From contig CAZDBO010000001.1 of NCBI GenBank assembly GCA_964503755.1, forward strand, positions 13,933-77,932: 64,000 nucleotides of DNA, written 5' to 3'. A program made the translations under genes and the position numbers. This document shows positions 53,133 to 59,494 of this stretch, in pieces (position 1 is the first letter of the stretch; each line of letters starts with the position of its first letter). Below the pieces are notes generated by a model. That model was given only the letters and a program-made list of their open reading frames with translations, did no database searches and was not told the DNA's origin. Origin of the DNA: an uncultured Candidatus Saccharibacteria bacterium (GTDB lineage: Bacteria > Patescibacteriota > Dojkabacteria > JAOAGR01).

Positions 53133-53684
53133 TCAAGAATGATTTTTTGGCCAGATTAAGAATTTATCTAAATGAATCTTAAGTATATAAGACGTGAAAG
53201 CATTATTGGTGGATTCAACAAAGAGTTCTTTTCTTGTGATTAATGAGTTTAGTACGGTTTGTAATATTTGATCATTATCATTATTTTCTTTTGCATATTG
53301 GCGTATGGCAATTCCAAATTGTTCTCCATTTTTTACTTCTTCAGATACTCTTTTTGGTAATTGTGTTTTGCCACTTATGCCTAAAAAGTATTGACCGGTT
53401 CTATCTAAAATCAATGTTACACAAACTAAAAAATAATTATCATCAATTAGAGCTAATCCAGCTTCCATACCCACACCGATATCTGCATCTGTATCATGTG
53501 ATAGAGCAGCTCTAGCTCTATTTTTAGCTCCAGTAATAGTGATAAATTCATCTAATGGTTGATCTGGTATGTCTGATGGAACATCGTATCCTGTTAAATT
53601 TGCAGCTATGTTGAGATCTTTTCAGGTATCTAAAAGTATTTGTTTTTTGTCTTTTGAGGTGGTACCTAGTGCAATTTTCATCAT
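53133..53684 (-). pseudogene. YjjX-like inosine/xanthosine triphosphatase (Maf/Ham1 superfamily) with an in-frame TGA
   Basis: Conceptual translation MMKIALGTTSKDKKQILLDT*KDL...ITITGAKNRA...VGMEAGLALIDDNYFLVCVTLILDRTGQYFLGIS resembles YjjX (…RAGARNR…IEAGID…FSWVVIE…). TGA at 53622-53624. Confidence 0.55.
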
Positions 53685-53766
53685 TTTATAAATTATATAT
53701 AATTAATTTTCTATTTCAATCTAATTTGATATTCGAAGAATAACCAATTATAGATAAACTAACCTA

Positions 53767-54932
53767 TCATTTCATTCGAATTGGGTTATTGATGATATAT
53801 GGATTGTAAATACTATAGTTTGAATAATTAGGAAACGGCTTTATAATTATATCCCTTATTATTGAGTTGATAACCATTGAAAAAATAGACATCACTAAAT
53901 AGATTAAAATTAATGTCGTTGCATTTTTTACATAATTACTATTTACAAGAAATACCAGTATTGTTACTATTGGTAATGAAGAGAGAAAATATATCAAAAA
54001 CTTTTTTAGGCCCGTTTTAATCTTTACATAGATATTAGATATATTACTTTTTGGTTTGTTATTTATTAAATCTATTATTTGAAAAATAGTTTCAACCGTT
54101 GAATATAAAAATAAAAATGTAATAAACAAAGCTAAAATTCTTGTTGGCCAAACTTTATTAATATATTCATCGTGAAATACTTTGATGGGATCTTGATTTG
54201 AAAACTCTATATATTTTATTGTTTTCATTAATTATATAAGGTTCAATATATTTGCCGTTTAATTTGCCAAATAGATTTCCTTCGAAGCCTGTATACAAAA
54301 CATAATAACTAATGCGTATATCGCCATGCTCTAGATTTTCTGGAGTACCACTTGGACTGTTGTGAATGAATATATAATTCTCGTTCATTAAGATAGCTCT
54401 TTTATCTAGGTTTAAGATGTCAAGACTAAGTTTTAACTAGGTAAATTCGGGTAGGGTTATATTTTTAGGGTCAAATTTGTATAGGCTAATTTTAACTTCT
54501 GAAACGAAATACTTGGAACTGTCAATTATTTTAGTAGAATTGAATGAATTGTATATCCTTCCTTCACTTCTTCACGCCAATCTAAAGTTAATCTATAACC
54601 ACTTTTCCTATTTCCTATTACGGACCAAGAGTACATTTCTGCTTTTCCATATATTGCTAAATATTTATCTGGCTTTAAATAAAGATCGTCTCCAATAAGT
54701 TGTTGAGTTTCAATCTTACCTTTGTAGATACTAATTTGTTATTTAAGTGAGAATTTTGATTTGGATTTGATGAAGAAATATCAATAGCGTACTTTGCTAT
54801 TTCAAATAGATGAATATTTAGTTCATTATTAAACATCCAGTATACCGAAGCTCCACCAAAAGCAAATACAATTGGCATTACTACAATGAAAGTAATCAAT
54901 TTGATTAAAATATTACACCCAAAAAATTTCAT
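53767..54932 (-). pseudogene. Membrane-protein family gene, copy B (disrupted); paralog of 55398-56470
   Basis: Fragments 54675-54932, 54167-54388 and 53767-54228 plus intervening frames align colinearly with copy A (e.g. IGDDLYLKPDKYLAIYGKAEMYSW vs IGDELFLLPDKYIVVKRKVEMYSW; GTPENLEHGDIRISYYVL vs GTPDNPKVGDIRIIYYII). Interrupted by TAA/TAG codons and frame changes. Confidence 0.55.
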
Positions 54933-55397
54933 GAGAGTATTTTAAATAAAATAAATTATTAAAGTAAAATTTAAATGAATATTCCGTTTTGCAGCATTGT
55001 AAAATTTATCTTGATTTTAAAGTTTATGTACAAGTGGTTTGAAAAATTTTATTCTAATCTATAAATTAAGTTTTTATTTTAGTTGGAATCTAAGACAAAC
55101 TCTTTAAAAGATTGTTATGTGACATGGATTATTTTGAATTTGTGATACAAATTGAATTTTAAAAATATGAGACATCAAGAGTTTTTTAATTTTATAAATA
55201 ATTCAATATTAGATTCTTGCTGATAAATTAGTATATTGTCCTAATTTTTATTCATTAACGCGGAAATAGGAGTTATTGTGAAACGAGATACAAAATGCTC
55301 CGCTATTTTAATGTTTATGATCGAACAAATAGGTGATGTGATAAATAATAAAAATAACCAAAATACAAAGTTATAAAATAGTTTATATAAAAAACTA

Positions 55398-56470
55398 TCA
55401 ATATTTGCAGCAATAGGGTAGTAGAAATAGTAATGATAAGTCAATTATTATGCTTTTGTAATATGGTAATTTAAGAAAAGGATTTTTATTTCTATCCAAA
55501 TTGAAACATATAAATACAGTTGTGCTTACGGTCAAGAAATATAGAATAAAGAATAATGCGGAATTAATTTCGAACTGGTCAGTGATATATTCATTTTCCA
55601 TAATGTTGATTGCTTGCTTATAAGTACCTACAAATAATCTATAGAAAAAGGTTTTTTGTTTATCATCATAAAAAGGTACAACATAATCTTTATTTAATTC
55701 TCCAAAAATAGTTACTAGTGTATCTGGATATATTATATAATAAATAATACGTATATCACCTACTTTTGGATTGTCTGGTGTTCCATCCTTATATTACGTA
55801 TATAAATGTAAGTATTATCCAATAGAATTATTTCATCTGGTATATTTGGGTTTTCTAAATCTAGCTTATCGGGGTATAGTGTTAAGCGTTCTAATCCTGT
55901 AATTTCTAGATTTTTGGGATTAAATTTGTATTGTCCAATGTATGCTTCTTCAACAGTGTTTGTAAAACTTTCAAATAGTTTTGGTGGATTTTGATATGCT
56001 TTATTGTGGAATCTATATTTGGGAGGACCTTCTAACCATGTAGAATAGTATCAGTATATAGTTTCTTCGATTTTTGTACTATCTTTATAGCTTAATCTTG
56101 TAACTCTAGTTTCTTCTTCGACCCATGAATACATTTCTACTTTTCTTTTTACAACGATATATTTATCAGGGAGTAAAAATAGTTCATCACCTATTATAGA
56201 TCCATCAGATTTGACTATTCCAGTTATATATATGGGTTGTTTATCAACTGAATAATTTGCATAATCAACGGTAGGTGTTATTTGTTTTGCATTTTTTGCA
56301 ATAGTCGCAAAATCTTTTATTTCATATATAAAATAAAGAGTGGTAGCTATCATAATAAAACTGATTATGAAAATCATGATAAATTCTGCTGCGAATTGGG
56401 ATTTGTGGAATGCCGAAATTATATCATTCAGACTTAAACTGCTGTTTGAAACATTTTGAGTATTGTTCAT
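55398..56470 (-). pseudogene. Membrane-protein family gene, copy A (disrupted by in-frame TGA, TAA and a frameshift)
   Basis: ORF 56051-56470 ends at a TGA, after which the same frame stays open for about 75 more codons (YYSTWLEGPPKYRF...). It then shifts frame to ...GTPDNPKVGDIRIIYYII... and ORF 55398-55601. Confidence 0.55.
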
Positions 56471-57848: not shown

Positions 57849-57911
57849 GATAAATTGTAACAACTTTCATATAGAAAACTAATGTAAATTTAATTAGTAA
57901 ACTTTAAATAT

Positions 57912-58688
57912 TCAATTATTAATTTCTTTAATTCTAAACATACCCGATTTAACCAATTTTATACTGTTATAATTATTTCGATCTGAGAATTCAAATTGCC
58001 ATATTAAATATACTTCTTCATTTTTAACCTTTTCGAAGAATAAAGTAATTATTCTTTTCTTTGTATGTGTTTGCCATTGTCTATATGGATAGTAGAGTTG
58101 ACGTATTATTACATTGGTAGCATTAAAATTCTTTGCTTATACAAGTACAATTTTGTTTTTACCTTTATATCCTGCATCTACCTCTGTTTGAATACTCGAT
58201 ACTTTTATAAGATGCTTTCCAACGTAAAAATCAAATGTAGGAGTATATTTTCTACCTCTAATTGTCAATACTAAGGTAGGATCATTTGTGAAAGTTCTTA
58301 TTAGGTTTGTAGCATAAGCATAATCTAAATGTTGCATTTCTGAATTTCCTATTTTTGCTGTATCCAAAATAAAATCAAGTTTAGAATTATAAATAATTTC
58401 TTCATTTTTAATATTAGATATGTCTACATAACCTTAACCTCGAATTATGTTATAAAAACCATTTTTAACAGGCAATAAAAAAAGATTATTCTGTACAAAA
58501 ATATCAGGTCTATCTTCACGACTATCTTGTTTACACAGTATTCTGACTTCCTTTTCACCTGTTTTTTTAAAGTTCTGACAAGATCTCTTTATTTGTGATG
58601 CATGGAGGACATATCGAGACTTATCAAAATCATGTTCAAGAATCTTATAGTCTTCAAATATTTTTTGCCATGATTGATTCATTGCCAT
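57912..58688 (-). pseudogene. Type II restriction endonuclease-like gene with two in-frame TAA codons
   Basis: ORFs 58434-58688 and 58137-58367 plus a further roughly 70 codons share one frame separated only by TAA (58434, 58137). Located directly downstream of the MTase remnant. Possible PD-(D/E)xK region ...TEVDAGYKGKNKIVLV. Confidence 0.45.
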
Positions 58689-58693
58689 ATTTT

Positions 58694-59494
58694 TTAATCA
58701 AATTCTAGTTTGTTTTGTAGATTACGTTCTAATTCTTCAAATCTTTTTATTGATATGTCTAGATATTTTTTTTCTAGATCTATTCCAATAAATTTTCGGC
58801 CCAAAAGATAAGCAATAACACCAGTTGTCGAGCTTCCTGTGAAAGGATCTAGTATTAAATCTCCTTTGTTGGTACTTGCAAGTATAACACGTTTCAATAA
58901 ATCTTCCGATTTCTATGTTGGATGTTTGCCAAATTTCTTTTCTATAGGCTTCGGTGTACCAATAGCCCATACTGAACGTATTTGATGTTTAGGCTTTTTT
59001 AAGATATCTTCTTCTCCCCAATGACCGTTTTTCATTAATTCGTAATTAAAAACATGTTTTTCTTTTTTCTCTTTTTTTGTCCAAATCAGTGTTTCATGAC
59101 TTGCAGTGAAATACCGACAACTAAGATTTGTGAAGCATTTGGTTTAAACCAGACAATGTCATTTAAAATATGAAAGCCAGCTAATTGAAGAGCAAATCCG
59201 CATTGAAAAATTGAATGATAAGTTCCACTAACCCATATAGTACCATGTGGTTTCAAGACACGTTTGATAGTCTTGATCCATTTAAGATGAAATTCAAAAT
59301 CTTTTTTAAATCGATTACTTTTGTCTCATTCTCCCTTGTTAACGCTTACACGTTTTCCAGCATGAACAGTGAAGCCTCCATTTGAAAGTAAATAAGGTGG
59401 ATCGGCAAAAACACTATATGTATTGAATTTTCAGTAAGTTCTGGAATGATGTCTAAGCAATTTGCGTGGTAAAGTATAAATCCCGATTTTTCAT
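58694..59494 (-). pseudogene. DNA N6-adenine/N4-cytosine methyltransferase (beta-class, DPPY...DPFxGSGTT), multiply disrupted
   Basis: Conceptual frames give ...IVFADPPYLLSNGGF...KGE*DK (TGA at the conserved W of GEWDK)...LKPHGTIWV... and C-terminal [31 protein letters not shown] (ORF 58694-58897). Frameshifts and TGA/TAA/TAG stops throughout. Confidence 0.7.

Follow-up and report, generated by a model that had tools for sequence, protein, structure and literature searches.

Introduction

Clusters of pseudogenes are known from host-restricted or bottlenecked bacteria such as Mycobacterium leprae, Rickettsia prowazekii and Sodalis, and a deletional bias was reportedly described by Mira, Ochman and Moran in 2001. 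Genomes of the Candidate Phyla Radiation (CPR) are generally reported to maintain a high coding density and to hold few pseudogenes (PMC9166423). Here we analyze a 64-kb stretch of DNA from a CPR genome, Candidatus Dojkabacteria (hereafter the window, to which all coordinates refer unless another locus is named), and specifically a 6.4-kb minus-strand block located between an M20 peptidase gene and tRNA-Ser(CGA). This block most probably represents six non-functional gene remnants residing in a variable slot and subject to piecemeal reductive decay through small lesions: a methyltransferase (MTase) and restriction endonuclease (REase) pair, a Sir2-family protein, two TMEM43-type membrane proteins and a YjjX-type nucleoside triphosphatase (NTPase).

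Results

Six broken genes fill the block

Minus-strand frames of the block were stitched and thereafter scanned against Pfam, as well as against NCBIfam and PADLOC models, and lesion maps were generated with a frameshift-aware protein-to-DNA aligner, using the best intact relative of each remnant. For comparison we exploited the corresponding locus of the closest relative, a sister genome, the Ca. Dojkabacteria metagenome-assembled genome SKW36 (L002, JAOAGR010000004), and that of a third relative, recovered from the Logan runs SRR24079436 and SRR24079437 (L094/L102). Homology to a protein family over most of the family length was detected for six of six remnants, and all six also carry disabling lesions relative to intact homologues under the standard code. 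An earlier reading of the same DNA (the original prediction) had proposed that every minus-strand gene of the block is broken, congruent with the stops and frameshifts present throughout. It had however counted seven genes, whereas six were found, with a 153-aa open reading frame (ORF) being the C-terminal part of the second membrane protein gene.

The window has ~29% G+C and is densely coding, yet no ORF between 53133 and 59510 exceeds the one of 153 aa. Elsewhere in the window ~46 further ORFs of at least 100 aa are undamaged, and the genes flanking the block are intact, with 78-95% identity to those of the relatives. Along the guided path through the six remnants, comprising 1,885 codons, we observed internal stops at 8 codons, as well as 16 one-nucleotide frameshifts, of which 13 are deletions and 3 are insertions. 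In comparison, the off-frame stop density in the DNA of the block is 0.06-0.14 per codon, and a random frame of 1,885 codons would thus be expected to contain 115-260 stops. The in-frame stops comprise TAA, TAG and TGA, and in the four cases for which the homologue codon is readable a G/C has given way to an A/T: two TAA codons correspond to GAG or GAA, one TGA to TGG and one TAG to CAA. These four changes are in line with the AT-biased mutation previously proposed, but the compositional evidence for AT-biased decay is weak, as the G+C content is 27.6% in the block and 29.0% in the rest of the window. The anticipated pattern of point nonsense mutations and 1-nt indels devoid of large deletions was similarly recovered in the remnants, except that the 5' end of the MTase gene is lost. 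Scanning of the block with Rfam returned nothing beyond tRNAs, and no non-coding RNA; the entire window harbors three tRNAs (ARAGORN, Rfam). The features of the region, and the Logan contigs that reproduce it, are collected in Table 1.

Table 1. Features of the slot between tRNA-Ser(CGA) and the M20 peptidase gene, and Logan contigs matching the region.
Feature	Window position	Strand	Basis or identity
radA, intact, beyond tRNA-Ser	59736-61028		protein 78% identical to SKW36 radA
tRNA-Ser(CGA), upper slot boundary	59623..59712	-	ARAGORN, Rfam
MTase pseudogene, beta-class N6-adenine, CcrM/HinfI-like family	58694..59510	-	PF01555
REase-like pseudogene, type II, DUF6996 + DUF6997	57912..58688	-	Pfam
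Atypical ~405-aa Sir2-family pseudogene	56635..57886	-	homologue alignment
TMEM43-A pseudogene, divergent TMEM43/DUF1625 membrane protein	55262..56470	-	PF07787
TMEM43-B pseudogene, includes 153-aa ORF 53767-54228	53767..54932	-	PF07787, SKW36 orthologue
YjjX-type inosine/xanthosine triphosphatase (DUF84) pseudogene	53133..53684	-	PF01931, NCBIfam NTPase models
Predicted M20 promoter TTGACA-N17-TACAAT	53078..53106	-	consensus only
M20/M25/M40 peptidase, intact, 447 aa, lower slot boundary	51706..53049	-	85% identical to SKW36 (L002), 88% to L094
Logan contig L001, run SRR11582145	64000-59623		100%
Logan contig L091, run SRR11582145	59651-56787		100%
Logan contig L092, run SRR11582145	56790-55162		100%
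Logan contig L093, run SRR11582148	56575-55643		100%
Logan contig L101, run SRR11582145	55175-54124		one SNP at 54805, no indel

The restriction-modification pair

The stitched translation of the MTase remnant matches PF01555 (N6_N4_Mtase) with an E value of 2.5e-54 and shares 76% identity with the MTase domain of a CPR homologue (contig L005). The nearest NCBIfam models are of the CcrM/HinfI type, with the CcrM model reaching 217 bits, far below its cut-off of 830. The conceptual translation maintains the DPPY and FTGSSTTG motifs (catalytic and S-adenosylmethionine-binding), and the gene is disrupted by both frameshifts and stops. Indeed, a TGA is present exactly at the Trp of GEWDK, as had been proposed (59328-59326), a TAG replaces a Gln codon (58915-58913), and 1-nt deletions are located near 59414 and 59130. 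The homology begins at QKPYY (~59507), with two in-frame TAA codons upstream and no in-frame start; the ATG at 59494 belongs to another frame. The L005 homologue itself displays an unusual architecture, in which the MTase is fused to a LexA-type helix-turn-helix and an S24 peptidase domain (488 aa).

The adjacent REase-like remnant is recognized by the Pfam models DUF6996 (E 4e-22) and DUF6997 (E 1.6e-46), and is 77% identical over 256 codons to an intact CPR homologue, P0003. The latter matches the PADLOC REase_II model (E 7e-34), and the MTases match the MTase_II models, in agreement with the restriction-modification (R-M) pair called originally. The frame was expected to be split by two TAA codons only, and exactly two were identified, without any indel, at the conserved Glu codons E85 (58436-58434) and E184 (58139-58137), although the frame spans 256 codons rather than ~300. 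E184 represents the Glu of a conserved VDAG...IEAK stretch (D171...E184-x-K186, a D...ExK motif). As the REase is consequently dead at its putative catalytic Glu, loss of the MTase would be harmless. Eleven homologues share 85% identity with one another and 76% with the window copy, which is altered at 15 of the 163 columns invariant among the eleven, including the replacement of E184 by a stop, changes that would fit relaxed constraint.

The homologues of the REase are always positioned directly after a beta-class N6 MTase in the CPR contigs L005-L010, and on Firmicute and cyanobacterial plasmids the family is likewise always accompanied by an adenine methylase. The DUF6996/DUF6997 protein is strikingly conserved and yielded 3,526 matches, and the eleven homologues named originate from different CPR lineages while averaging 85% identity. 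No relative of the REase with a solved structure was found, nor a characterized DUF6996/DUF6997 member or literature on DUF6997. As a separate matter, GANTC is found 158 times in the window compared to 195±14 times in shuffled sequences. Such a mild depletion is of uncertain meaning and not diagnostic, and avoidance of GANTC as a HinfI-like footprint was hence rejected.

An atypical Sir2 remnant

The Sir2 region provides a weak Pfam signal only (E 0.003). The stitched frame however aligns over 97-100% with 35 Sir2-family proteins of 396-431 aa (best E 3.5e-81, covering 99% of the length), and positions 57200-57900 correspond to the N-terminal domain (~200 aa) of an atypical sirtuin, not to a spacer or a separate gene. 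When compared to the homologue P0121 (46% identity), the remnant exhibits a single TAA and nine frameshifts, of which eight are due to the loss of 1 nt, mostly next to A/T runs. The GAGIS motif is itself hit by a frameshift and the HLTG motif contains Phe instead of His, while the intact homologues P0121-P0144 keep GAGIS, TENVD and HLTG. The degenerate GAGIS of the original prediction was thereby recovered as a frameshifted one, but the many stops reported along with it resolve into the nine frameshifts and a single stop.

Between the TENVD and HLTG regions no zinc-ribbon CxxC pairs are present, in the homologues and the window copy alike. Thus, the zinc-binding Cys4 module is absent and the family represents an atypical Sir2, of which 35 clusters are known, apparently all CPR-like. 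Matches to the PADLOC ThsA/SIR2 models are weak (E 4e-5 to 3e-4), and the family may have a role in defence. In the one genome examined for neighbors, that of the homologue P0127 (contigs L095-L100), the neighboring genes encode RadC, an NYN nuclease, a 560-aa N6 MTase, an OLD-like ATPase/TOPRIM protein and a helicase, a setting that looks like a defence region.

A tandem pair of TMEM43-type membrane protein genes

The tandem paralogs were earlier believed to lack recognizable homologs, an assessment that does not hold. Both match PF07787 above the gathering cut-off of 23.3 bits, TMEM43-A with 78.1 bits (E 9e-22) and TMEM43-B with 35.9 bits (E 7e-9). An exhaustive search with TMEM43-A recovered 942 cluster representatives at E<=1e-3 with a best identity of 34-37%; a word-indexed search gave one match, at 30% identity. 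TMEM43-A is interrupted by a TGA (56053-56051) and by at least two frameshifts, near 55792 and 55421, and its 3' end is uncertain. It is only 34-35% identical at the amino acid level to either copy in SKW36, too divergent for orthology with either of them to be called. A Logan protein of 236 aa, P0163, was considered as a more intact form of TMEM43-A and discarded, being the same DNA with the TGA called as Trp.

In contrast, TMEM43-B has an intact 397-aa orthologue in SKW36, with which it shares 65% amino acid and 74% nucleotide identity, the former end to end. Relative to this orthologue, frameshifts are located near 54725, 54549 and 54199, and a TAG at 54439-54437 corresponds to CAA in SKW36. 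The 153-aa ORF, regarded by the original prediction as an unknown gene of 155 aa, is the C-terminal transmembrane part of TMEM43-B following the +1 frameshift at 54199: residues 254-397 of the SKW36 protein, the C-terminal third, align to 54201-53773 with 56% identity.

The YjjX remnant and the M20 boundary

At the lower end of the block, the YjjX remnant matches PF01931 (NTPase_I-T) with an E value of 9e-27, and as predicted consists of one frame, of 183 codons, with a single in-frame TGA (53624-53622). The remnant is more degraded in both relatives, at 17960-18330 of the SKW36 locus and at 1216-1775 of L094. The L094 copy possesses three stops and two frameshifts, none of which coincides with the TGA of the window. 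YjjX is accordingly dead in the window, in SKW36 and in L094, and the lesions are not shared.

Directly downstream of this remnant, a TTGACA-N17-TACAAT sequence, unique in the window, is near-unchanged in a three-way alignment of the window, SKW36 and L094. The longest M20 ORF opens at 53106 with a TTG that is the first half of the -35 box, and the true M20 start is therefore ATG 53049. Conservation of this predicted promoter, at which the decay ends, plausibly explains continued M20 expression, and by keeping a promoter of its own the gene would survive the decay of the block.

Cargo differs between relatives at the slot

In SKW36, the gene order is radA, tRNA-Ser(CGA), a different R-M pair (a 293-aa REase candidate and a 314-aa MTase), a 427-aa gene encoding a FecR-domain protein on the opposite strand, an intact TMEM43 pair (370 and 397 aa), a 640-bp gap that holds the badly degraded YjjX, M20 and galE. 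In L094, the 3' end of tRNA-Ser (the first 40 nt) is followed by ~1.1 kb with a broken Methyltransf_11 gene (41-1199), the YjjX remnant and M20. As the cargo between tRNA-Ser and M20 differs among the relatives, the region represents a variable slot. The cargo turning over at this slot, accessory or defensive in nature, comprises the R-M pair and probably also Sir2. Conversely, TMEM43-B and YjjX are vertically inherited, judging by their synteny with SKW36, and TMEM43-B is broken only here. The comparison with related loci advised earlier uncovered the intact TMEM43 pair and the death of YjjX in both relatives.

A tRNA-linked integrative element was also considered. The 3' end of tRNA-Ser is not repeated elsewhere in the window, no att repeat and no significant or terminal repeats were detected at the block, and no integrase is found among the identified genes; such an element was accordingly rejected. 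Regarding closer relatives, a scan of Joint Genome Institute metagenomes with M20 yielded none above 50% identity, and a genome scan found SKW36 only. Exact look-ups of several fragments for intact alleles similarly recovered nothing beyond the source genome and Logan runs from that same study.

Reliability of the lesions and the genetic code

It is conceivable that errors of sequencing or assembly introduced the stops and indels into genes that are intact in the organism, particularly as most of the frameshifts are 1-nt deletions beside A/T homopolymers, which is also a signature of long-read error, and as such a site coincides with one junction of Logan contigs. Nevertheless, the lesions from the MTase through the last frameshift of TMEM43-B recur in the output of a different assembler, and some of them in a second run (Table 1). 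As these contigs match 59651-54124 with one SNP and without any indel, assembler error is unlikely. Moreover, eight of the lesions are substitutions to stops, two of them at conserved Glu codons, and errors would need to cluster in 6.4 kb of a window in which ~46 other ORFs of at least 100 aa are intact. Altogether, we regard an artefact as highly unlikely.

Alternatively, the genes may be functional through recoding, by decoding of TGA as Trp or Gly, which is known from some CPR lineages, by stop read-through or by programmed frameshifting. One TGA is indeed placed exactly at a conserved Trp, and the gene caller of Logan translated TMEM43-A with TGA as Trp. However, the window employs the standard genetic code, with the 41 ORFs of at least 150 aa ending in TAA (24), TGA (12) and TAG (5). 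With TGA a common terminator and all three stop codons found in frame, an alternative code is ruled out. In addition, the 16 frameshifts lack a common slippery motif, and catalytic positions are gone, namely E184 of the REase and the GAGIS and His motifs of Sir2. Rescue by recoding is consequently exceedingly improbable.

Age and order of the decay

Four-fold degenerate sites of the flanking genes display identities of 0.39-0.60 between these genomes, and the M20-galE intergenic spacer is 0.49 identical to that of SKW36. Neutral DNA is thus near saturation, and long-dead DNA would not align. TMEM43-B and its SKW36 orthologue are 0.77, 0.82 and 0.61 identical at codon positions 1, 2 and 3, respectively, a coding-type pattern suggesting that most of the divergence accumulated under selection. 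For YjjX, the corresponding values between the window and L094 are 0.78, 0.86 and 0.77, i.e. between coding and neutral, whereas those between the window and SKW36 are flat (0.67, 0.70 and 0.68), hence the SKW36 copy is long dead. Supported by these comparisons, the pseudogenes are likely young. The recent relaxation of selection postulated in the original prediction is congruent with frames that are near stop-free and with the codon-position pattern retained in TMEM43-B.

These data also bear on whether some of the fragments are still used, such as the 153-aa membrane ORF, or YjjX through a restart downstream of its TGA or through read-through. YjjX suffers from a single lesion, retains its strong Pfam match and is best conserved at codon position 2 when compared to L094, and no ORF of the block is longer than the one of 153 aa. 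The YjjX stop however cuts off the N-terminal strand and the copies of both relatives are clearly dead, while the 153-aa ORF is merely the tail of TMEM43-B after a +1 frameshift. Continued use of such fragments is thus quite unlikely.

Lesions are unevenly distributed, with ten in Sir2, the most eroded gene, and the fewest in the REase (two stops) and YjjX (one stop). Such a range of lesion density, from ten to one, suggests staggered inactivation and speaks against a single event. A death of the block in one step, through loss of a shared promoter or through horizontal transfer of an already inactive R-M-Sir2 segment, would be congruent with six contiguous remnants on one strand having intact genes on either side, with a tRNA-Ser slot whose cargo differs in the three relatives, and with close REase homologues being spread across several CPR lineages. 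Nonetheless, in addition to the uneven lesions, TMEM43-B and YjjX are syntenic with SKW36 and therefore vertical, each of the three relatives has a dead YjjX with lesions of its own, and an integrase, att repeat or terminal repeat was not detected at the block. We therefore consider a one-step death unlikely, and favor gene-by-gene decay.

Discussion

Aggregated, the findings point towards a block in which G/C-to-A/T nonsense substitutions and mostly 1-nt deletions would have disabled each gene, with the DNA not yet deleted. The decay would have proceeded piecemeal, gene by gene, with TMEM43-B and YjjX having been inherited vertically and then become dispensable in this lineage, and none of the block genes is expected to yield a full-length protein. 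We infer loss of function and this order of events from the lesions and their distribution, and drift may have played a role.

Several observations weigh against this interpretation. The Logan contigs are probably derived from the read sets of the deposited genome, and a systematic read error could still be present. The segment 54123-53133, with the end of TMEM43-B and the TGA of YjjX, falls outside the independent contig coverage. The junction of the contigs L091 and L092 (56787-56790) coincides with a Sir2 frameshift in a T-run. This T-run could vary in length within the population, or reflect homopolymer-length heterogeneity in the reads. The Sir2 remnant, with nine indels and one stop, is also more indel-rich than the others. 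Furthermore, the fact that the six dead genes are contiguous is not itself accounted for by independent piecemeal decay, and fragments may retain residual function, for instance the membrane ORF, or YjjX via read-through of its TGA.

The view of the whole block as one decaying defence island, as initially put forward, is not maintained. TMEM43-B and YjjX are syntenic with SKW36, TMEM43 has no match among the defence models, and YjjX belongs to a house-cleaning NTPase family rather than to defence. In PADLOC, strong matches were obtained for the R-M pair only, with Sir2 being weak (E 4e-5) and TMEM43 giving none. A decaying defence island thus describes no more than the upper third of the block, and of the block genes the R-M pair alone is defence-like, with Sir2 as a possible addition. 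The DUF6996/DUF6997 R-M system and the zinc-less 405-aa Sir2 may represent uncharacterized, CPR-specific mobile defence modules.

A further element of the original prediction, a genome undergoing reduction, is plausible considering three more candidate broken genes in the window and the broken genes of the relatives, but cannot be established from 64 kb. The first, a candidate young pseudogene 3 kb from the block, is a NUDIX gene (49410-49990, plus strand) that appears to have lost one nucleotide near 49476, behind codon 22, when compared to its intact L094 orthologue of 183 aa, with an otherwise uninterrupted frame. The second is a frame of ~425 codons with a HEIHH (HExxH) motif (20141-21418, minus strand), lacking a Pfam match and interrupted by TAA at 20797-20795 and 20470-20468, which is probably the HExxH gene mentioned earlier as located elsewhere. 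The third, just downstream of tRNA-Pro (22103-22179), is a frame of ~200 codons (21420-22100, minus strand) with two in-frame stops, a Glu/Ser/Gly-rich repeat and no Pfam match, which may be another decayed tRNA-adjacent gene. In SKW36, the orthologue (8453-10078, minus strand of that locus) of an intact 504-aa membrane protein of the window (61062-62576) contains an in-frame TGA at 9622-9620.

That this Dojkabacteria clade is a CPR lineage in active reductive decay is a tentative proposal, which we consider less likely than its converse, and which is based on approximately nine candidate pseudogenes in 64 kb, the broken genes of the relatives and three independent losses of YjjX. CPR genomes tend to be viewed as having been streamlined long ago and, if the proposal is true, the clade would offer a rare natural time-series of a CPR lineage shedding accessory, defence and house-cleaning genes, and a pseudogene-rich Dojkabacteria clade would be mildly unusual. 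Should pseudogenes be equally common genome-wide, the lineage would be useful for studying ongoing CPR genome reduction. For annotation, the 6.4 kb are best described as six pseudogenes, not as ~20 short hypothetical ORFs or unknown defence components, and the locus is a small, clean case of R-M turnover and gene decay beside a tRNA in a CPR bacterium.

How does the locus then relate to described systems? The R-M pair resembles type II systems with a CcrM/M.HinfI-like MTase and a PD-(D/E)XK nuclease, in that the MTase gene precedes the REase gene and their ends overlap or adjoin, which is also true of intact CPR homologues, and in the DPPY, FxGSGTT and D...ExK motifs, with the difference that both genes are inactivated here. 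Similarly, the Sir2 family shares GAGIS-like, (T)ENVD and H-x-x-G motifs and a PF02146 match with sirtuins (CobB/Sir2) and with ThsA of Thoeris. In contrast to sirtuins such as CobB, its members are ~405 aa long, with an extra N-terminal domain of ~200 aa and no zinc-ribbon insert; the family scores far below the cut-off of the CobB models, and the window copy is dead. Both TMEM43 paralogs display the layout of the TMEM43/DUF1625 family (PF07787) seen in the intact SKW36 genes, an N-terminal transmembrane helix, a large loop and C-terminal transmembrane helices, whereas both window copies are broken and paralog A is at most 37% identical to known members.

As a whole, the block is an ordinary, new instance of a well-known phenomenon, involving two families, the DUF6996/7 REase and the zinc-less Sir2, that are poorly characterized but not novel in kind. 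Similarly to the pseudogene clusters of host-restricted bacteria, dispensable genes acquire nonsense mutations and small indels while their DNA is still in place, the same deletional bias is observed (here with 1-nt deletions and insertions at 13:3), and accessory and defence genes are hit first, there as well as here. The difference is that the organism is a CPR bacterium, of which the analysis covers a 64-kb window.

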